This document shows, piece after piece, positions 15,724 through 53,158 of a DNA stretch of 64,000 nt. The notes beneath the pieces are model-generated. The model searched no databases, had not been told where the DNA came from, and saw only the letters and a program-made list of their open reading frames with translations. The stretch spans positions 16,033 through 80,032 of the IMG/VR virus record IMGVR_UViG_3300003177_000020, one strand, 5' to 3'. A program made the position numbers and the translations under genes. The stretch's first letter is position 1, and every line of letters begins with the position of its first letter. This stretch comes from a virus.

Positions 15724-17061
15724 ATGGGAACGGAAACAAAAAGCAAAAAGCTGTATTCTGATAACGCCAAAGTGATGGAACTAGATCCAAATGACATTTT
15801 GATTTCGTGGCGTGCCAGACGCGACTTCGGAGATATAAAAAGTCTGGCAGAAGATATTCAAACAAACGGGCAAATAGAACCGATTGCTGTTTCTCGTATG
15901 GATGGAGGGTGGTTGGTGGTTGCAGGTTTACGCAGAGCACAAGCGTGTGCATATGCAGGGATTTTGGTCAAGGCTATTGAAATCCACACTACAGATCATT
16001 CGCACCTGCTCCATGTTCAATTCAGTGAGAACTTTTCCCGTAAGAATTTCTCTTTGTTGGAAGTTGGCGAAGCGATCAAAAAGCTGCAAGCCACCTATAA
16101 AAAATCAAACCAAGAGGACAAATCATCCACCGCATTTATCAAGGCAGCCAGTGAGCAATTAGGGTGCAGCCCATCAACGATACGCGATATGCTGAAAATT
16201 GCAGAGATGCCACAGCTTGTAAAACAGAAGATCATATCTGCTGGATCAACAAAACAACAAAACAAAGTGGCTCGCAAAGAACTGGCAGCCAAAAGAAAGA
16301 CTGACAAACGAAAGAAACAACAACAAAAGGTATCTGCCATCTTACAGCACCGCAAAACAAATGCAGATCAATACAAATATTTTTTGTACAATGAAAGCTA
16401 CAAAAAGATGCTGCGAAGACTTCCCAAAGAGTTTTTTGATCTTGTGCTTACAGATCCTCCATTCGAGTTGTGTTGGTCGGAGGTTTCGCACGATACCAGA
16501 AAAGATATCAATGAAAGTTTGTATTGGGATCAACTTGATCTTTCTTGGGTTGATGATGTGATCCCGTATTTGCAGAAAGATTCTTCTGTGCTGGCATTTT
16601 GCAGCGCGGAGTTGATCGGATCATACAAGCAGAAATTTGAAAGTGCTGGCTTGAAATGGCGTGGGCATATCGCATGGCATAAAAGCAATCCATGCCCAGT
16701 ACACCGCAATGTATACGCTTCAAGCATGGAATACATCGTGTGGGCTTCTAAGGGATCACCGTATTTCGAAGCGTGGGAAAATGCAGGTACTCTGGAATGC
16801 CACAACTTCAAACAGTATCCAACATGCAGCGGGAGTATTCGGAACCACCCGACACAGAAACCGATTGCACTTTTGGAAGAATTGTTACTGCGCCATTCTT
16901 TTCCTAAAGCAAGAGTCCTTGATCCTTTCGGTGGATCATTTTCTACCGTGGCAGCGTGTCTAAAACATGATCGTGAATGTCACAGTTCCGAGATTGATAA
17001 CGACTATTTTGAAGATGGAAAACTACTTGTAGCCTCCGTGTTATCGGAGTTGATCGCATGA
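15724..17061 (+). CDS. ParB-like domain fused to a beta-class (N6/N4) DNA methyltransferase
   Basis: R.DFGDI..LA.DI...GQIEPI, AG.RR..A, EN..RK (ParB); TDPPF, WHKSNP, HPTQKP, VLDPFGGS (MTase). Confidence 0.9.
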   Translation: MGTETKSKKLYSDNAKVMELDPNDILISWRARRDFGDIKSLAEDIQTNGQIEPIAVSRMDGGWLVVAGLRRAQACAYAGILVKAIEIHTTDHSHLLHVQFSENFSRKNFSLLEVGEAIKKLQATYKKSNQEDKSSTAFIKAASEQLGCSPSTIRDMLKIAEMPQLVKQKIISAGSTKQQNKVARKELAAKRKTDKRKKQQQKVSAILQHRKTNADQYKYFLYNESYKKMLRRLPKEFFDLVLTDPPFELCWSEVSHDTRKDINESLYWDQLDLSWVDDVIPYLQKDSSVLAFCSAELIGSYKQKFESAGLKWRGHIAWHKSNPCPVHRNVYASSMEYIVWASKGSPYFEAWENAGTLECHNFKQYPTCSGSIRNHPTQKPIALLEELLLRHSFPKARVLDPFGGSFSTVAACLKHDRECHSSEIDNDYFEDGKLLVASVLSELIA

Positions 17062-24730: not shown

Positions 24731-24783
24731 ATGCTAACTTTTTATAAATAAAGCTTGTAAAGTGAAGTGATCCTAGCTACTAT
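24731..24783 (+). promoter_or_regulatory. Early-type promoter TTGTAA-17-TACTAT, GATC in spacer
   Basis: -35 at 24755-60, GATC at 24769-72, -10 at 24778-83. Confidence 0.8.
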
Positions 24784-43874: not shown

Positions 43875-45356
43875 ATGTCTGAACCGCAAGAATTTACAAT
43901 TGATCCTGTGAGTATCGTTGCTGCTGGTGACATTGGACATATCCGATCTATACGCAGAAAGATTAAAGAAAAAAAAGGTTATCTTGCCAGCCGTGTGATG
44001 GATGTTCAGCAGCGGAACAATGCTGTGATTAAGCAGCTAGTCTTGGAAGAAGACAGGATCGATATTCTTGCGCAGCATGTATTAGGTTATGACCCGCAAG
44101 ACATACATCATGAGATGATGGAGTTTCAAAAAACCCATAAGGAAGGGATGATCCTTGCGTGGCGCGGTGCTGCAAAAACAACTTTTTGTACGATCACATT
44201 TGCTATTTTCAATATCATAAAAAACCCAGATATTCGGATACTTCTTGCTTCATCTGCGATTGATCAAGCGCGTGTGTTCTTGAAGTCGATCAAGTTGCAT
44301 TTTGAGACAAACGAACGATTGATCGAGATCTTTGGTGATTTTTTCACAGGAGCGAGATCGTGGACTGAAACGGATATCATTGTTCCGCAGCGCAGATCGT
44401 TTGCAGGTGAATCCACACTTTTGGCTACAGGTATCGGGACTGCGTTACCATCACGTCACTTTGATTTGATCATTGCAGATGACCTTGTTATTCGAAAAAA
44501 TGCCCAAACTGAGCATCTTAGAAAAAAAGTTCATCAGTATTTTTACGAGACTCTGTATCCCACACTAGAATCACCTGATGGCAGACTTTATGTGTTGGGT
44601 ACGCGGTGGCATGAAGAAGATCTGTACAAGTGGTTTGCCGATAATGATTACAAAAACGATCATTTGATTATCAGTGTTTTTGATGAGGATGGTGAGTCAC
44701 GGTGGGCAGAAAAATATCCTAAAGAAAGAATGCAAAAGATCCAACGTGCAAATCCAGATGCTTTTGATCTCCAATACATGTGTCAAACTGGCGCGACGCA
44801 GGGTACAATTTTTACTGAGCATCATTTCCAATATTACGAGGAGTTACCAGCGGGTGTTAGGATTTGGCAGGGTTTGGATTTGGCTATCGGTACAGCTGCA
44901 CACAATGATTTCTTTGCGCACGTTACGATTGCTGTTTGTCCTGAAACAAAAGGTGTGTATTTGGTGTCGTTTCGTTTGAAAAAGTTACAATTCCCACAGC
45001 AAGTAAATTTTATTCGATCACGGTTTCAAGACTATCCTGATACTCAAAAAGTGGTTCTTGAAACCAATTCATATCAAAGGGCAATGTTTCAGCAGTTACG
45101 TCATCAATTCCCTGATATTCCTGTTCTTGGAATACAGACAACAAAGGATAAAATTGCTCGCGCACAAAAGCTGGCTTGGAATGCTACATCCAATCCGATA
45201 TATGTGTTGGAGCGTCATTATAAATTCGTGAAGTTGTTTCTAGGATTCCCACATATTAAGGGATCAAAAGATTTGTTTGATGCATTTGATATTGTCTATA
45301 CACAAGCCACCAAAAAAAGCCGTAGAAGGCGTCGCAGCACACCGTCTTTGATCTAA
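43875..45356 (+). CDS. terL: Terminase large subunit
   Basis: LAWRGAAKTT Walker A, HFDLIIADDL, GTRWH..DL, GLDLA, ETN.YQ, DLFDA. Confidence 0.93.
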   Translation: MSEPQEFTIDPVSIVAAGDIGHIRSIRRKIKEKKGYLASRVMDVQQRNNAVIKQLVLEEDRIDILAQHVLGYDPQDIHHEMMEFQKTHKEGMILAWRGAAKTTFCTITFAIFNIIKNPDIRILLASSAIDQARVFLKSIKLHFETNERLIEIFGDFFTGARSWTETDIIVPQRRSFAGESTLLATGIGTALPSRHFDLIIADDLVIRKNAQTEHLRKKVHQYFYETLYPTLESPDGRLYVLGTRWHEEDLYKWFADNDYKNDHLIISVFDEDGESRWAEKYPKERMQKIQRANPDAFDLQYMCQTGATQGTIFTEHHFQYYEELPAGVRIWQGLDLAIGTAAHNDFFAHVTIAVCPETKGVYLVSFRLKKLQFPQQVNFIRSRFQDYPDTQKVVLETNSYQRAMFQQLRHQFPDIPVLGIQTTKDKIARAQKLAWNATSNPIYVLERHYKFVKLFLGFPHIKGSKDLFDAFDIVYTQATKKSRRRRRSTPSLI

Positions 45357-46049: not shown

Positions 46050-47723
46050 ATGTCGGAGCCTATATCGCTACAAGGCGTTGATTCCAATGGCGTGCCTGTA
46101 AAACTCCGCGCTCGATTGGTGGAGGTAAAACAGCCAATAACAAAAGCTGTTGGTGAGCCAAATCCTGACGCTGCCAGTTCCAATGCTTTAGGTGAGGAAG
46201 AATTATTTTCTCAGCTTGAAGGGCTTAATCGAACGGTTGAGCCACCGTACAACTTGCAGGGTTTGGCTCGCTATCCTCACCGATCCACAATATTGCTTCA
46301 GAATATCAATGCGATGGTTGTGAATACTGTTGGTTTCGGGTGGCAGTTGCGTGAAGTAAAAATGCCTGAAGAAGTGAGGGCAGCGCATAAAACTGAAATT
46401 GAAACTGAGAAATTCAAACTTGAACACTTTTTGAAGCATTGCAATTTTTTCAATTCGTTGACGCATATTCGGAAGCAAGAGCATTTTGACAAATACACAA
46501 CTGGGAACGGTTATGTTGAGATTGTTCGCAGTCCTACAGGCAAAATTGTCAATTTAAATCATGTTCTTGGTCATGCAATCCGTATGACTTACCGAGAAGA
46601 TGACGCGGTTGAAGTTGCCGTGAAGGTCGCACTCCCCCATGAAAACTTCAAAATGCGCACCATATCTTCTTATGTGCGATTCCGACGATATGTCATGTTT
46701 AGAGGATCAACACCTGTGTTTTTCAAGCAAGCGGGTGATCCTCGTATTTTGGACAAACGCACAGGTGAATACACAACTGAAAATTTGCCTATTCGCTATC
46801 GTGCAACAGAATTGATACACAATCGCATTTACGATCCCACAACGCCTTATGGTGTGCCTTATTATATCGGCACTGTTTTAGGTATCGATGGTTCCAGAAA
46901 ATCGGAAGAAATAAATCACAATACTATGAACTCAAATGCGATTCCATCCGCAATGGTGATTGTTGAGAATGGGCAGCTTACTGAAGATTCAATAAAACGA
47001 CTTCAAGAGTTCATTCAGTCGCAAGTTCAGAGTGATACAAATTATTCAAAGTTTTTGTTGATCGAAGGTGAGTCATTGGAAGAAGGATCGATGGCTCCGA
47101 TGAATTTGCGTATTCGTATTGAGCCTATGAAAAGGTTGCAACAAACGGATGAAATGTTCCAAGACTACGATCAAAACAACCGCGAAAAAACACGACAATC
47201 TTTCAGGCTTCCACCTTTGTTTTCTGGCAACGCAAATGATTACAAGCGCGATAATGTTTCGATTCTTCGGGACATTGCGGATGAACAAGTGTTTGCTCCT
47301 GAGCGCGATCATACCGATGATTTGATCAACCGATACGTGCTGAATCCTTTAGGTGTAAAATATCATCGGTTTCGATCTCTGAATCCAAACGTGACTGATG
47401 ACACTGAATTGATACGCTTGATGGGCATGGCAGAGCGTTCAGGTGCGATGACTCCGCGACGTGCAGATCGGATTATTCGGGATGTGTTTGGTGATGATAT
47501 CGGACAGCAACCGCAAGGTATCGATCTGGATATTCCGTTTACAATTCAGTTTGCGAATGCCCAAAATGGTGCGCTTACAAATTTGAATAGCAGCGCGACA
47601 TCGACATCTGATAATCTGCTTGGTGACTTGATGAAATTGAATAAAAGCGTTGACGGATCGGTTATGCTGCCTTTTACGTCGCAGGATGAATTGTTGGAAA
47701 TTTGGAAATCTTGGGAGTCCTAG
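46050..47723 (+). CDS. Portal protein (PBSX family)
   Basis: EPPY, GFGW, TGNGY.E..R, TELIH....YG.P, F..Y...N...RQ.FRLPP...G. Confidence 0.92.
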   Translation: MSEPISLQGVDSNGVPVKLRARLVEVKQPITKAVGEPNPDAASSNALGEEELFSQLEGLNRTVEPPYNLQGLARYPHRSTILLQNINAMVVNTVGFGWQLREVKMPEEVRAAHKTEIETEKFKLEHFLKHCNFFNSLTHIRKQEHFDKYTTGNGYVEIVRSPTGKIVNLNHVLGHAIRMTYREDDAVEVAVKVALPHENFKMRTISSYVRFRRYVMFRGSTPVFFKQAGDPRILDKRTGEYTTENLPIRYRATELIHNRIYDPTTPYGVPYYIGTVLGIDGSRKSEEINHNTMNSNAIPSAMVIVENGQLTEDSIKRLQEFIQSQVQSDTNYSKFLLIEGESLEEGSMAPMNLRIRIEPMKRLQQTDEMFQDYDQNNREKTRQSFRLPPLFSGNANDYKRDNVSILRDIADEQVFAPERDHTDDLINRYVLNPLGVKYHRFRSLNPNVTDDTELIRLMGMAERSGAMTPRRADRIIRDVFGDDIGQQPQGIDLDIPFTIQFANAQNGALTNLNSSATSTSDNLLGDLMKLNKSVDGSVMLPFTSQDELLEIWKSWES

Positions 47724-48197
47724 ATGCGAAAAGAAAAAGTGCAAATACAGAAGTTTGAGTTGCCAAAAAATATGGAGATGCTCGATTTTGCGGGACTTGT
47801 AATGTCTGCAGTTTCGGAAGTTTCAAGGCGTGAGAATAAAGATCTTGGATTAATCGGTATTTTTTCAGATCACATCGTAGTGCAGGATTGGTCAACTGGT
47901 GAAAATTTCAAACTAGATCTGACTGTTTCTGGTTCTAATGTTACTTTGGGTGACAAACTTGTGCCAGTTCAAAAGGTGTTTGTCCCTATTAAAAAAAGAA
48001 TAAATAAATCTTCTGATGCGATGCAAATTATCAATCTGCCTCCTGTTGTGGTGCAGGTTGAAAAGGGAAAATTGACACCTGAATCCATTGCTGTGATTGA
48101 AAAGATCGCATCTGGAACTTTGCCAAGTGTGGATCATGTTGATTTGGATGCTATTGAAAAACGAGAATCTTCAGTAAGCTGGGAAGGTATTTTTTGA
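47724..48197 (+). CDS. Head-associated protein with C-terminal WEGIF
   Basis: IF.DH.VV pattern, many (I/V)xK sites. Confidence 0.65.
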   Translation: MRKEKVQIQKFELPKNMEMLDFAGLVMSAVSEVSRRENKDLGLIGIFSDHIVVQDWSTGENFKLDLTVSGSNVTLGDKLVPVQKVFVPIKKRINKSSDAMQIINLPPVVVQVEKGKLTPESIAVIEKIASGTLPSVDHVDLDAIEKRESSVSWEGIF

Positions 48198-49261
48198 GTT
48201 CACGTCTGCGCAAACTCTCCACTGCTGCTTTTTTGGTGCATGATGAATTGTGTCGTGTGACAAAAGCAGATCCTATTGCTTCCACATTTGAAATTGACAA
48301 AAAAATTGTGAAAGCTGTCACACAGGCATGGTCGCAGGTGGCTTCAAAAAGTATCAAACCTGCAGTTGTGCAATTGATCCAGTCGAAACCTACCGCAAAA
48401 AGTATCGCTTTGTTTTCTGAAAAATTAGGTGTGAAGTTGGCGAAGCCTCTTACATCAAAACAAATTGATGCTATTCAAATTCAAATACAAAAAATATTTG
48501 CAATTTCTAAAAAGGCAGCATCCAAGCAAGCCAAGATTTCATTTAATTTTGCACAAGCAGATGCGGATGCCGTTGCGCTTATCAATCGCCAGCAGGTGTT
48601 CTGGATTGGTGATTTTTACGACGCACATTTATCGGCACGCATACAGGCTGTGGCAAAGGATATTCTTATCGAGCAGGGTTTGGATCGCAAGGATGCAGGA
48701 CGTGTATTAGAGGACGCAGTTTCTAAGGAATTTGGGCTTGCAGGTGAGACCAGATCCGAGTTTGCGCCAACTGTTCCTGCGCGGTATGCAGGGAACCCAT
48801 CTTTGTATTTTGATGCCGTTGTAAGCACGTCAGCACATCAATCCAGAACATTTGGGAAGGTTTCAGCATTCAATGATGCGGGGATTCAAACGATCCAGTT
48901 GATCAATCCCCTTGATCGCAGGACAGGTGTGATTTGTCAGCAACTTGCTGGGCAGGTTTTTACAACTGAGATTGCTGTGGATCATATGAACGGTGTTCTT
49001 GGTGCGAAAGATCCAAAGGATATTAAAAATATTGCGCCTTGGCTTTCTGGTTCACAGATTGAATCTATTTTGTCTGGCACACAAGTTGGTAGTCCAGCTG
49101 CCAGTGTGAAGCTATCAAAAGCAGGTGTAATGCTCCCACCGTTTCATGCTTTTTGTAGAACTGAACCTGTTGTTGTATCCGTAGATTTCGACACATCAAA
49201 GCTTCCCACTTCGGTTTCATCTTCTGGGAAAAATAAAGAAATAATACCATTCAAAAAATAG
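48194..49261 (+). CDS. Minor head morphogenesis protein (SPP1 gp7/MuF-like)
   Basis: D.RT..IC..L.G..F and PPFH.FCRT. Confidence 0.85.
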   Translation: MSSRLRKLSTAAFLVHDELCRVTKADPIASTFEIDKKIVKAVTQAWSQVASKSIKPAVVQLIQSKPTAKSIALFSEKLGVKLAKPLTSKQIDAIQIQIQKIFAISKKAASKQAKISFNFAQADADAVALINRQQVFWIGDFYDAHLSARIQAVAKDILIEQGLDRKDAGRVLEDAVSKEFGLAGETRSEFAPTVPARYAGNPSLYFDAVVSTSAHQSRTFGKVSAFNDAGIQTIQLINPLDRRTGVICQQLAGQVFTTEIAVDHMNGVLGAKDPKDIKNIAPWLSGSQIESILSGTQVGSPAASVKLSKAGVMLPPFHAFCRTEPVVVSVDFDTSKLPTSVSSSGKNKEIIPFKK

Positions 49262-49319: not shown

Positions 49320-50843
49320 ATGATTATGGTTTCTGTGCAACAAGTGGTTGAGAATATTGCGGGTGCGAGTTCGGATGAGTTGATCCAAGCTCACAACGAG
49401 CTACATGCTATCTGGAAGTCTGGTGATGTGGAAGTCGAGCAAGCTGCAAAATTCAACGCAATTATTCGCGCTGTGCTGATTGAGAAGAATATCGCTCCCA
49501 CCGTGATCGATTCGGATTTGGATATGAGATCTGCAATCTGGATGGAAGAATCATCTTTATTTGATGTTGACAGTTCACCTGTTCACAAGATCCTTGCAGG
49601 TGAGAAACTGCAAATTGAAAAGGGTATTGGTGCCCAACTGTGGGGAAGTCCTGCTGGTAAAAGTAATATCGCAAAAAGGCTGCTTCCTATGTTCCCAGAA
49701 CATGATGCTTACACTGAATTGTTTTTTGGTGGAGGTGCTTTGTTTTGGGGTAAAGAAAAAGTTGAAACTGAAGTTGTGAATGATTTTGATGAAGAAATCG
49801 CATTTGCAATTAAGTTCACACGAGATATGACAGACGCAGATATTGAAAAGCTGAAAAAGATGAATTGGAATCCTATCAGCAAAGAAGAATGGGTGCGTTT
49901 GTTTAAGAGTGAACCTACAGATCCATTAGAGCGATATTATCGTTTTTTGAAAGTTCGTGTTTGTAGTTTCATGTCTCGTGGTTTGACTTTTTCTCCACAA
50001 CATTCTGGCGGTAAAAATATCCCTAAAAAGTTGGAACGTGCGCGGGAAAAGCTATCTGGTGTTCGTGTTTTCAATACTTCGTATGCGGATATAATCAAAC
50101 AATATGATAGCCCAACAGCTTTTCATTTCCTTGATCCTCCATATGTTAAGACGGATCAAGGTGTAGGTGAGAAGACATTTGATCACGAGCAGTTTTGGGA
50201 TATTTTAGCATCTCTTGATGGTAAGTGGATGGTGACATATCATATGTCACCATTTGATATGTTCGATGGTAAGTTCAAAGGTAAAGATTGGACTGTTGTT
50301 GAGATGGGGCATAGTCGCACGCGTGGTACTTCAGGGAATGGGGAGTACACAACAATTGTGACCATGAATTATCAACCCACAGAAGACCAGATCAAGTTTT
50401 GCACTACGAAACCATCAGATCGTCAAAAGGTGAAAAAACACGAGGCAGAAGACAACACTGATGTTTTGCGTTGGATACCTATTACAAAATCAGATACAAC
50501 ATCAGGTGATGCGCAGATTGTTATGGGTGTCGTGTTGGAACCTGATGGTGTGGATGCGCATGGGGATACGATTTCAGCACAAGAGATTGAAGATGCTGCG
50601 CACCAGTGGCTTGCAAAGTTTCAAAATGCAGGACTCATGCACTCTCGTCTTGTGAATGAAAAAGTGGAGTTGTACGAGTCTTATATTGCTCCTGTTGATT
50701 TTGAAATAGGCAGCGAACAAGTGAAGGCTGGTTCTTGGATTCTTGTCTATCATGTGCTGGATTCGGATTTATGGGCAGCAATTAAAAGTGGTGAATTAAC
50801 AGGATTTAGCATGGGTGGTTTTGCGCGACGTGTTGATCCTTGA
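49320..50843 (+). CDS. Fusion: D12-class DNA adenine methyltransferase + XkdF-like prohead serine protease
   Basis: SPAGKS, ELFFGGGALF, EVVNDFD, FLDPPY; then VMGVVLEPD..DAHGD, ESYIAP, GSW, IKSGELTGFSMGG. Confidence 0.92.
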   Translation: MIMVSVQQVVENIAGASSDELIQAHNELHAIWKSGDVEVEQAAKFNAIIRAVLIEKNIAPTVIDSDLDMRSAIWMEESSLFDVDSSPVHKILAGEKLQIEKGIGAQLWGSPAGKSNIAKRLLPMFPEHDAYTELFFGGGALFWGKEKVETEVVNDFDEEIAFAIKFTRDMTDADIEKLKKMNWNPISKEEWVRLFKSEPTDPLERYYRFLKVRVCSFMSRGLTFSPQHSGGKNIPKKLERAREKLSGVRVFNTSYADIIKQYDSPTAFHFLDPPYVKTDQGVGEKTFDHEQFWDILASLDGKWMVTYHMSPFDMFDGKFKGKDWTVVEMGHSRTRGTSGNGEYTTIVTMNYQPTEDQIKFCTTKPSDRQKVKKHEAEDNTDVLRWIPITKSDTTSGDAQIVMGVVLEPDGVDAHGDTISAQEIEDAAHQWLAKFQNAGLMHSRLVNEKVELYESYIAPVDFEIGSEQVKAGSWILVYHVLDSDLWAAIKSGELTGFSMGGFARRVDP

Positions 50844-50858
50844 ATATAGAGGTTTGTG

Positions 50859-51899
50859 ATGGCTGGTAACAACGCGGATGCTGCATTGGAAGATTTGGAA
50901 GTCCAAGAAGTTTCTTTTGTAGATGCTCCCGCAAATCGAAGAAAATGGTTAATTACGAAAAAGGAGGGCATTATGCCTCAAGGTGGGATTCTAGATATGC
51001 TTGGTTTTAAAGATAATGCACCAAGCAATGCTGTCGTGAAGCTGGAAGGATCGGACATGAAAATCAAGATCAACAAAGCATTGCAGCCTCAAGTTGAACA
51101 GATTCTTTCCGCAGCATTGGAAAAAATGACGAGTGTTGCTTCCAATGTTCCTGTTGATAAGGCAGAAGTTCCAGACGAGTGGTTGCAGCAGTTGTTTGAA
51201 GCACAGGCACAACTCGCAGCATTGCTTGAAGCCCTTTCAGGTGATGAGCCTCCATCTGAAGAATCCACAGATCCAAGTGAAGATTCAGAGATGGATAAAA
51301 TGGTGAAAGCTATTTCTGCTGGATTGTTGGAATTGGTCAACAAAGTCAAATCGGTGGACAAGGCTGCAACAAGTATTCCTTCAGAGATTCTCAAAGATCT
51401 TAATGCATTGGTTCAGAAGTTTGCTGCTGTGAAAAAAATGGCTGAGAAACCTGCGGGTGGATCTGGTTCTAGTGCTGATGGCATGGATGAAGAAGATCAA
51501 CAAAAAGACAAGCGAGATCATGTTGCAAAACTTGAAGTTTTCAAAGGCAATGGATCTGATGTTGTGTTGAAGCGTGGCGATAACTTGGTTACAACAAATG
51601 TTTCTGAGTTGGAAATCTTGCACAAAAATATTGTTGGTGTTCTCCAGCAAGTTGGTGGCTCCGTTTCAATCACAAAATCTTCTGACAGTGTTGATCGTAA
51701 TAGTTTGATTGAAGGTTTCGGGAAAATGGAAGAAATTGTCAAATCGACTGTTGGTGAATTGAAAACGGCAATTGCTGGTGTTCAAGAAAAAATTGAAAAA
51801 CTGGATGGTATTCATGGTGGTGGTAACGCTGCTTCTTCTGAAGAAACTCCATCCAGTGAAATCAAGAAGAATAACTCGATTTGGAATGGGATCTTCTAA
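50859..51899 (+). CDS. Capsid scaffolding protein (XkdF-associated)
   Basis: L.DL.V.EVSFVD.PAN.R...ITK, helical body, immediately before the MCP, ends WNGIF. Confidence 0.8.
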   Translation: MAGNNADAALEDLEVQEVSFVDAPANRRKWLITKKEGIMPQGGILDMLGFKDNAPSNAVVKLEGSDMKIKINKALQPQVEQILSAALEKMTSVASNVPVDKAEVPDEWLQQLFEAQAQLAALLEALSGDEPPSEESTDPSEDSEMDKMVKAISAGLLELVNKVKSVDKAATSIPSEILKDLNALVQKFAAVKKMAEKPAGGSGSSADGMDEEDQQKDKRDHVAKLEVFKGNGSDVVLKRGDNLVTTNVSELEILHKNIVGVLQQVGGSVSITKSSDSVDRNSLIEGFGKMEEIVKSTVGELKTAIAGVQEKIEKLDGIHGGGNAASSEETPSSEIKKNNSIWNGIF

Positions 51900-51961: not shown

Positions 51962-53158
51962 ATGCCAACAAATCAAGAACTCATCAACAAGGCTGCGATT
52001 ACAACCGATGCCATTGCAACCGCAGGAAAGTTGAATCCACAGCAGTCAGATAAATTCATCGATTATGTTTTTGATGAAACATCTCTCAAAGGCATTGGTG
52101 TTCGTACTGTCAAATTTCGCGAAAGTCAGCGTGAAATAAACAAAATCAATGTTGCAAATCGTGTCGCAGTTGCAGCCGATGAAGCAGCCGATCCCAAAGT
52201 TCGACGCGGTATTGCTACCAGTACAATTACACTCGAACCAAAAGAAATTATGGTTCCTTTCGAGATTGGTGATTTGCTTAAAGATCAAAACATCGAACAG
52301 GACAAAATCGAAGATACCATTGTGCGGTTGATGGCAACTCGCATGGGCAACAACATTGAAGAATTGTTTTTGGCGGGTGATGCCACAGGTCATGCCGTGC
52401 TTGAAAATGAACTTGTTGAAGGTGGTTCTTCAAATTTGTATCGCAAGGATCGTTATCTTGCCCTTTTCGATGGATTGCTGAAACTTGCGGAAGCTGGACA
52501 TGTTGTGGATGCTCAAAATCAGCAGATCAAACCAACTTTGATCTCTCGTGCATTGCGTTCGATGCCAAACAAATTCCGAAAAGATCGTAAGGCACTCAAA
52601 GCACTGCTTTCATGGGATCATGAGCAACACTACCGCGAAGGCGTATCCAGTCGTGCTACAAATGCTGGTGATGCTGCCTTGTCAGGTGAAGGTGCAATTT
52701 CTTCTTTTGGTGTTGATCTTTTGCCCATCAGTTTGCTTGAAAGTGATCCACGTTACACAGAGCATGTGATTCTTACAGGTACAACTCCTGTGCAACTTCC
52801 ACACACAAACATTTCTGAAGTGGTTGTCACGGTTTCCACATTGGACAAGACACCTGAAGCGGCTTTTATCGCAGGTACAGATTACAATGTTGATCTTGCT
52901 GCAGGAACAATTGTCCGTTTGGCTGGAGGTGCAATTTCCAGTGGGCAGACTGTGAAAGTCACATACAGAACTGCAGGTCGCATGATTATTACGATGCCAA
53001 AAAACATCATTATTGCGATGGGCAAAGACATCACAATTGAAAAAGATCGCAACATTTACAAGCGTGTGAATGAATATGCAGTGACTGCAAAAGTGTTTGT
53101 GACCTACGAAGAACTGGATGCCGTTGTATTGCTCAAGAACTTAGCTCTTCCTGTGTAA
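51962..53158 (+). CDS. Major capsid protein (HK97 fold) with Ig-like insertion
   Basis: G.LNP.Q...FI, NIE, .E.L...GD, DG.LK.A, A...MP.K, P.N.I, EE.DAVV; AAGGAG RBS. Confidence 0.92.
   Translation: MPTNQELINKAAITTDAIATAGKLNPQQSDKFIDYVFDETSLKGIGVRTVKFRESQREINKINVANRVAVAADEAADPKVRRGIATSTITLEPKEIMVPFEIGDLLKDQNIEQDKIEDTIVRLMATRMGNNIEELFLAGDATGHAVLENELVEGGSSNLYRKDRYLALFDGLLKLAEAGHVVDAQNQQIKPTLISRALRSMPNKFRKDRKALKALLSWDHEQHYREGVSSRATNAGDAALSGEGAISSFGVDLLPISLLESDPRYTEHVILTGTTPVQLPHTNISEVVVTVSTLDKTPEAAFIAGTDYNVDLAAGTIVRLAGGAISSGQTVKVTYRTAGRMIITMPKNIIIAMGKDITIEKDRNIYKRVNEYAVTAKVFVTYEELDAVVLLKNLALPV

Follow-up and report, generated by a model that had tools for sequence, protein, structure and literature searches.

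Why should a phage build a DNA methyltransferase into the same polypeptide as the protease that matures its head? This question is raised by a single gene, located at 49320..50843 (+) in a 64,000-nucleotide window of viral DNA (positions 16,033 to 80,032 of the IMG/VR record IMGVR_UViG_3300003177_000020); all coordinates below are those of this window unless a related locus is named. The source record represents an uncultured virus of 80 kb, with a CheckV completeness estimate of 84%. From the list of open reading frames (ORFs), Pfam, PHROG and an AlphaFold2 model, the gene encodes a protein of 507 amino acids (aa), in which an N-terminal domain is followed by a D12 methyltransferase, a linker and an XkdF protease. 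We consider the best explanation of this arrangement to be that the protease takes the methylase with it into the head, where the methylase is released by cleavage, a reading to which we assign a probability of about one half.

A methyltransferase and a head protease in one chain

We observed that MethyltransfD12 (PF02086; alpha-group, Dam-family) matched aa 113-294 of the protein with 56.7 bits against a Pfam cut-off of 22, and that Peptidase_S78_2/XkdF (PF14550) matched aa 393-505, in the same frame, with 103.8 bits against a cut-off of 24. With both domains in one 507-aa ORF, the view of the initial annotation that a D12 methyltransferase lies in frame ahead of an XkdF protease was borne out. 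A single PHROG family, phrog_13242, covers aa 97-505, and as it matches this segment as one unit, the fused form is a family in its own right. The AlphaFold2 model of the fusion, made from 62 aligned sequences, has a mean predicted local distance difference test (pLDDT) value of 86.5.

The methyltransferase domain (aa 105-355; 49632..50384, +) was assigned from PF02086, from Foldseek matches and from its invariant motifs, and it is well folded from about aa 110 to 350 in the model. Motif I, FFGGG (aa 135-139), precedes motif IV, DPPY (aa 272-275), giving the order FxGxG then DPPY. Residues F135, G137 and D272-Y275 are invariant across 12 fused homologues, which are 33-85% identical overall. 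Judged by these motifs, the methylase looks catalytically intact and is predicted to be active. The Foldseek template modelling (TM) scores, by target, were 0.76 for Mcbe1 (7m6b), 0.68-0.75 for EcoDam, 0.63 for DpnM and 0.59-0.63 for T4 Dam, while a PDB sequence search with the methylase found only Mcbe1 and DpnM. The closest solved match by sequence and fold together is Mcbe1 (23% identity), not Dam. The stretch from motif I to DPPY was modelled as mostly helical, and the recognition region, as modelled, appears to differ from that of Dam.

T4 has internal head proteins without enzymatic roles, and the methylase-like domain could likewise be a non-enzymatic component, whether an internal protein of the head, a filler that binds DNA or a domain used in assembly. 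We regard this as very improbable: homologues as diverged as the 12 fusions keep both the motif that binds S-adenosylmethionine (F135, G137) and DPPY invariant, and the fold is complete, with TM values by target of up to 0.76.

At the other end of the chain, the XkdF protease core (aa 399-507; 50514..50840, +) was assigned from Pfam and from its fold match. Its presumed catalytic residues, H441 (50640-50642) and S497 (50808-50810), are invariant in the 12 fusions, and 85 XkdF representatives keep the corresponding His and Ser without exception. A PDB sequence search with the XkdF domain matched no solved structure. By fold, the best match of the domain model was T4 gp21 (5jbl; Z 9.3, 127 residues aligned, root-mean-square deviation 4.1); further matches were the proteases of varicella-zoster virus (1vzv, Z 7.1) and human cytomegalovirus (8j3s, Z 5.8), with unrelated rows at or below 5.1. 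As the model matches the folds of T4 gp21 and the herpesvirus proteases, we take XkdF to be an assemblin-like protease, and it can therefore be tied to the 'assemblin-like peptidase' of Iyer et al. 2017 (PMC5512222).

Profile searches of the genome for the ClpP and S49 families detected no protease; a search for S77 was not informative, as its control gave no signal. The only S78 signal in the genome is a weak, sub-threshold match on the XkdF end and on a conserved segment of the next gene, the PAN box described below. Among the prohead protease families found, the fusion is thus the only predicted head-maturation protease of the phage.

The N-terminal domain (aa 1-96; 49320..49607, +) is helical over aa 2-92, with pLDDT values of 80-94. 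A Pfam search with it gave no family. Short XkdF proteases of 200-250 aa without a methylase have a similar N-terminal part; with one of these, P0151, the domain shares 34% identity in the alignment, at a phmmer E value of 0.006 that is weak and comes from a small database. Because of this resemblance to methylase-free short proteases, the earlier description of the methylase as 'embedded' in the protease is a fair one.

Lysine motifs at the domain junctions and in the head proteins

Both sides of the methylase carry candidate cleavage sites of the form (I/V)xK. Ahead of it, IEK/G (aa 99-102, with K101; 49614..49625, +; the slash marks the proposed cut) lies in a lower-confidence joint at about aa 91-110, where pLDDT is 63-72. 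Behind it, a disordered linker (aa 356-398; 50385..50513, +) has pLDDT values of about 40, those of aa 370-388 being below 50, and holds VKK/H (aa 371-374) as well as ITK/S (aa 388-391, with K390; 50481..50492, +). The latter, a candidate autocleavage site, stands just before the protease core and is unstructured both in the model of the fusion and in that of a read-through construct described below. These positions are the ones given in the initial annotation, which saw the methylase as bracketed by three such motifs. The bracketing is upheld for IEK/G and ITK/S, which are conserved and lie in low-confidence linkers. VKK/H was dropped as a conserved site, since it is not kept in P0003, a homologue of 56% identity.

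K390 is invariant in the 12 fusions, and of about 80 related proteins most have a phi-phi-x-K sequence that precedes GxVLEP by 9-12 aa. On the other side, phi-x-K occurs within 9 aa upstream of the N-terminal motif of the methylase in 39 of 40 related domains, mostly as VEK/TIWGSPAGKK. The motif had also been noted in the portal, in the MuF-like minor head protein, in the scaffold and at the N-terminus of the major capsid protein (MCP), and we found it at these sites. In the MCP it is INK/A (aa 8-11, 51983-51994); all of about 65 related MCPs have phi-x-K/A about 10 aa from an N-terminus of variable length (e.g. ELINK/AAITTD and TILEK/ADLALADL). A phi-x-K near the N-terminus is likewise conserved in related MuF and portal proteins.

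By itself, [IV]xK is a motif of low information, with 198 copies in the 19,687 aa of the window's ORFs, or about one per 100 aa. We compared observed numbers with those of composition-preserving shuffles. In the head module, taken from the portal to the MCP, [IV]xK was seen 48 times against 25.6±4.5 expected (z 5.0), and [IV]xK[AGS] 16 times against 5.9±2.4. For 19 control motifs ([IV]xE, [IV]xR, [IV]xD, LxK, Kx[IV], [IV]K, [IV]xxK, AxK and others) z ranged from -2.3 to 1.1, and shuffles of the remaining proteome, outside the head module, gave no enrichment of [IV]xK. The excess is carried by the scaffold (16 vs 4.9, z 5.6), the fusion (11 vs 5.3, z 2.7) and a 157-aa protein encoded between the portal and MuF (7 vs 3.2, z 2.5); totals for the portal, MuF and the MCP are ordinary. 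In 57 related scaffolds that are not identical, [IV]xK reaches 360 copies, about two-fold the 174 expected, with Kx[IVL] not enriched; the z for this set is inflated because the sequences share ancestry. Conservation and enrichment together support (I/V)xK as the candidate cleavage site of a Lys-specific protease.

Parallels are found in other heads. HK97 MCP is cut after a Lys, and T4 gp21, which has the same protease fold as the fusion (Z 9.3), cuts at L/I-x-E. The logic shared with T4 would consist of a hydrophobic-x-charged motif at P3-P1, a scaffold cut many times, a trimmed MCP, and cargo that is freed, remains in the head and is ejected. The two systems differ in that P1 is Glu in T4 and would be Lys here, and in that the T4 cargo (IPI-III, Alt) consists of separate proteins with a short N-terminal targeting peptide, whereas the cargo of the fusion is covalently embedded in the protease. 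Duda, Oh and Hendrix reportedly found in 2013 that foreign proteins can be directed into proheads by means of portions of the HK97 protease. For ICP1, scaffold cleavage was shown in the published paper, which gives no site.

Exchangeable cargo ahead of a constant protease

The fused homologues are of metagenomic origin, the nearest two being 85% and 56% identical and the following ones 31-42%. Their methylases occur singly, as a tandem pair (P0004, P0005), as three (P0008), or together with other segments. IMG/VR holds at least 30 loci with a methylase and XkdF in one ORF, and in the ESM Atlas two clusters, of 65 and 82 members, were automatically named for both domains. The Atlas clustering suggests that prophages in Myxococcota are among the relatives. 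Comparing related loci in IMG/VR, we observed that the order portal - MuF - (cargo...XkdF) - scaffold - MCP is constant in about 80 of them.

A survey of XkdF homologues for swapped cargo at the same site had been proposed with the initial annotation, and it revealed that the cargo does vary among relatives. An exhaustive XkdF profile search gave 5,746 representatives, from which the nearest 150 were taken; 139 of them have a recognisable Ser motif. XkdF ends within 30 aa of the C-terminus in 126 of these 139 cluster representatives, and these 126 have at least 100 aa upstream in 110 cases and at least 250 aa in 75. Pfam recognised cargo among 85 proteins as InPase (17), D12 methylase (11), Tad3, the Thoeris inhibitor (3), C5 methylase (2) and DNA ligase (1). 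In a few proteins InPase is located after XkdF.

Three related loci encode much larger proteins, of 1,300-1,770 aa, which occupy the protease slot and end in XkdF (L039, 7290-12605; L080, 4110-8327; L082, 4515-8420). The cargo of these proteins includes an ATP-dependent DNA ligase, a uracil-DNA glycosylase (UDG), a metallo-beta-lactamase domain and two D12 methylases.

As a kind, such an arrangement has forerunners in the work of Iyer, Burroughs, Anand, de Souza and Aravind (2017; PMC5512222) and in P1 DarB. A literature search for a prohead protease-methyltransferase fusion found only the former, while publications mentioning 'XkdF' were genome announcements with nothing relevant. In that paper, phage-type 'polyvalent proteins' are described as having a C-terminal assemblin-like peptidase, and the prediction is that they are packaged and processed and that they accompany the DNA on delivery; InPase is named as typical of them (PMC5512222). 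The kind is known from computation alone. Polyvalent proteins resemble the fusion in combining DNA-acting effector domains with a C-terminal capsid-protease-like domain in one chain, and in having their gene in the head module beside MuF and portal; they resemble the relatives of the fusion in their InPase cargo. The 507-aa protein itself has an enzymatic domain and a C-terminal peptidase in one chain, encoded among head and packaging genes. Three differences stand out against the sections read: the methylase discussed there is a DarB-type methylase-helicase module and not a D12 (Dam-family) enzyme, neither a cleavage motif nor a split between protease and scaffold N-terminus appears in them (PMC5512222), and the peptidase of the fusion would also be the phage's only maturation protease.

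As summarised in that source (PMC5512222), phage P1 packages in its virion a methyltransferase-helicase, DarB (Dmt), which shields incoming DNA against type I restriction. As a head-carried DNA adenine methyltransferase thought there to act in cis on the injected genome, it is the system to which we liken the fusion. DarB differs in having an LPD36 domain, another type of methylase and an SF2 helicase, in being loaded through the Dar/Hdf pathway, and in not being fused to a head protease. A Pfam search of the 507 aa detected no helicase or other domain besides the two described, so that the DarB-like module of LPD36, N6A methylase and SF2/SNF2 helicase is absent. By analogy, the fusion may work like DarB, and it is not a member of the DarB family.

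The fusions also bear on the naming of genes in cultured phages. Some XkdF-only or XkdF-scaffold genes are labelled 'DNA methyltransferase' or 'DNA methyltransferase/prohead protease' (L084, 4875-5924; L085, 4929-5387; L083, 5980-6612), and cultured phages so mislabelled in GenBank are Lactococcus phage 28201, Pseudomonas phage UNO-G1W1 and Rhizobium phage RHph_TM16. We rejected these genes as fusions, as their products are XkdF-only proteins. Their labels are probably transitive, inherited from fusions of the present type. The practical consequence is that such fusions lead to plain XkdF proteases being mislabelled.

The scaffold, the proposed delivery of the methylase and its target

The gene between the protease and the MCP (50856..51899, +) was assigned as the scaffold from its position and motif statistics. 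Its N-terminus contains the 'PAN box' (EDLEVQEVSFVDAPANRRKWLITKK; 50889..50963, +), which was defined by conservation, by the model, by the gp21 alignment and by the S78 profile. In 51 of 78 loci, the ORF immediately following the XkdF gene has this box conserved at its N-terminus. The canonical form, an XkdF-scaffold protein of about 400 aa, carries it in cis, N-terminal to XkdF, while P0241 and P0065 have it in cis after XkdF.

HK97 gp4 (Peptidase_S78) and canonical XkdF are, like the fusion, His/Ser proteases encoded between portal and MCP, and protease-scaffold fusions of this group (phrog_3017, e.g. Lactococcus phage 28201) contain an 'EVSLVDxPAN' strand. The canonical protein has an N-terminal PAN box and a C-terminal scaffold in one chain; in our gene, by comparison, the place of the N-terminal PAN box is taken by cargo, and the box is encoded together with the scaffold in a gene of their own, downstream.

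Three kinds of evidence connect the PAN box with the protease fold. With the HK97-type S78 profile, a sub-threshold match (E 0.007, profile positions 95-149) extends from the Ser strand over the two stop codons into the box. In the best model of a construct in which the two stops were read through for fold modelling only, the PAN segment LEDLEVQEVSFV forms a strand with pLDDT of about 84 that adjoins a lengthened Ser strand. The alignments with T4 gp21 and the herpesvirus proteases also run on into this segment. We hypothesize, with weak support, that the PAN box supplies the last strand that the protease fold lacks, or serves as its docking peptide.

A joint protein made by stop-codon read-through was rejected. 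The gene boundary (50841..50858, +) consists of TGA, ATA and TAG, that is two in-frame stops, followed by a GAGG ribosome-binding site and the GTG/ATG start of the scaffold in the same frame. Moreover, the two genes stand in all three relative frames among relatives, often with an ATGA overlap.

In a MAFFT alignment of scaffold and XkdF N-termini, the PAN box (hRLvDMvVEEVSLVDRAAN) was paired with the first XkdF hairpin (eRfVLGIVLEPEVVDAQGD), and the two segments look alike. The likeness could reflect an old internal duplication or merely a shared strand-turn pattern.

The proposed sequence of events is as follows. The D12 methyltransferase would be a cargo inserted between the N-terminal helical domain and the C-terminal core of the protease, and the fusion would co-assemble into the procapsid with the scaffold. 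Recruitment could occur via the N-terminal PAN-box strand of the scaffold, completing or docking onto the protease domain; this strand would both bring the cargo-protease to the procapsid and confine its activity to assembled particles. Inside, the protease would cut after Lys in (I/V)xK, degrading the scaffold, trimming about 10 residues off the MCP and severing its own linkers at K101 and K390. The cleavage would free a methylase fragment of about 33 kDa (aa 102-390), too large to exit the shell, which would be retained alongside the packaged DNA. On infection of the next host, this fragment would leave the head together with the genome and, as P1 DarB does, methylate the incoming DNA ahead of restriction enzymes.

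We consider the virion-cargo reading plausible but unproven; it is plausible because a C-terminal XkdF behind variable cargo matches the prediction of Iyer et al. 2017 (PMC5512222) and because the fold matches that of T4 gp21. A further step, in which the head protease of this large clade of uncultured phages is at once a modular cargo carrier and a split enzyme, with the scaffold supplying the last strand in trans and (I/V)xK cuts freeing the cargo, is a tentative and rather doubtful proposal. If it were true, both the loading of cargo and the activation of the protease would hinge on assembly together with the scaffold, and methylases, ligase, UDG, InPase or the anti-Thoeris Tad3 would be released for the next host.

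Several observations weigh against delivery in the virion. Shuffle statistics on sets of homologues, such as the 57 scaffolds, are inflated by common descent. Instead of marking cleavage sites, the conserved Lys motifs might have a structural or binding role. The docking of the PAN box comes from one of five AlphaFold models (75.4 vs 66-67) and a sub-threshold profile match. A tblastn search with the whole protein against 50,697 cultured phage records found none with both domains together, and a megablast of the head module against cultured phages also gave no match. Another five [IV]xK motifs fall within the methylase core, and the methylase domains of relatives show no depletion (ratio 0.95); one might expect such motifs to be scarce in a cargo under selection to withstand the protease. 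Finally, the genome encodes a second, free-standing DNA methyltransferase in the replication region (ParB_N and N6_N4_Mtase; 15724-17061, +; own-genome search and Pfam), which could do all the protective methylation.

The motifs within the core also speak for the chief rival, a late methylase acting in the cytoplasm. According to this explanation, the fusion only couples synthesis of the enzyme to the late head operon, replicated DNA is methylated before packaging, and the copies in the prohead are digested, so that nothing is delivered. HK97 and T4 prohead proteases normally self-digest and exit the capsid, and late-expressed orphan methylases are common in phages, with hundreds listed among cultured phages. 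A cytoplasmic role would, however, leave unexplained why enzymes as diverse as ligase, UDG, InPase, Tad3 and up to three methylases share one slot, and why junction motifs lie in conserved disordered linkers; the free-standing methylase that the genome already has counts against it as well. We regard it as possible, if rather unlikely.

If delivery by the protease were true, the prohead protease would serve generally to load the head with early-acting enzymes and with anti-defence proteins, and hundreds of uncultured phages could protect their DNA before any gene expression. The analysis turns the computational prediction of 2017 into defined targets, namely the candidate cleavage motif, K101, K390, the presumed catalytic Ser S497 and a candidate docking peptide.

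The initial annotation had gone further, proposing a packaging-coupled methylation of GATC that sets the state of early promoters. The underlying GATC signals were confirmed. GATC is the most over-represented 4-base palindrome of the window, with 615 copies, 2.6 times the number expected from base composition; relative to the Markov expectation the excess is 1.21-fold. At five sites that resemble promoters (TTGnnn-17 bp-TAnnnT), GATC lies exactly 8 nucleotides after the -35 element; these sites are at 24755(+), 25521(+), 29035(-), 30710(-) and 38220(-). Among the 35 matches of this loose pattern, GATC takes the fixed spacer place five times and other tetramers at most twice.

The link from these signals to the fused enzyme is not established. 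The solved D12 enzymes EcoDam, T4 Dam and DpnM are GATC-specific, which would suit a head-resident GATC methylase that acts during packaging and switches GATC-bearing early promoters. GATC specificity of the fused methylase is nevertheless not established: its best solved match is Mcbe1 and not Dam, its region from motif I to DPPY is modelled as mostly helical, and the second ParB-N6_N4 methylase or a host Dam could methylate GATC and equally explain its excess. In addition, the two or three different D12 domains per chain in some relatives resemble a protection of multiple specificities, and methylating DNA during its high-speed packaging into a condensed state is mechanistically difficult. 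We consider the GATC switch decidedly unlikely, and the setting of promoter states during packaging a speculation. The spectrum of cargo domains (multiple methylases, ligase, UDG and Tad3) points instead to a putative role in the protection of incoming DNA and in anti-defence. The fusion by itself does not establish a new mechanism of epigenetic control.

Reading the target of the methylase from its structure or from genome statistics was rejected as not possible. In the window (1-64000), CCGG is absent and GGCC occurs once, against 55-117 expected, and TTAA stands at 0.43 of expectation. These counts point to a strong avoidance of HpaII/HaeIII-type sites and to none for GATC. Because GGCC and CCGG are avoided, a GGCC-type activity of the methylase is unlikely.

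The genes around the fusion are arranged as TerL, two small ORFs, portal, the 157-aa ORF, the MuF-like minor head protein, the fusion, the scaffold-like gene and the MCP. The portal (46050-47723, +) and the MuF-like protein (48194-49261, +) were assigned by Pfam and PHROG matches, and the MCP (51962..53158, +) by phrog_1623. The 157-aa protein (47724-48197, +), taken from the ORF list, has no family match and is kept in a few related loci; it may be another substrate of the protease or an internal head protein. The large terminase (43875-45356, +) ends in a C-terminal run of arginines (...KKSRRRRRSTPSLI).

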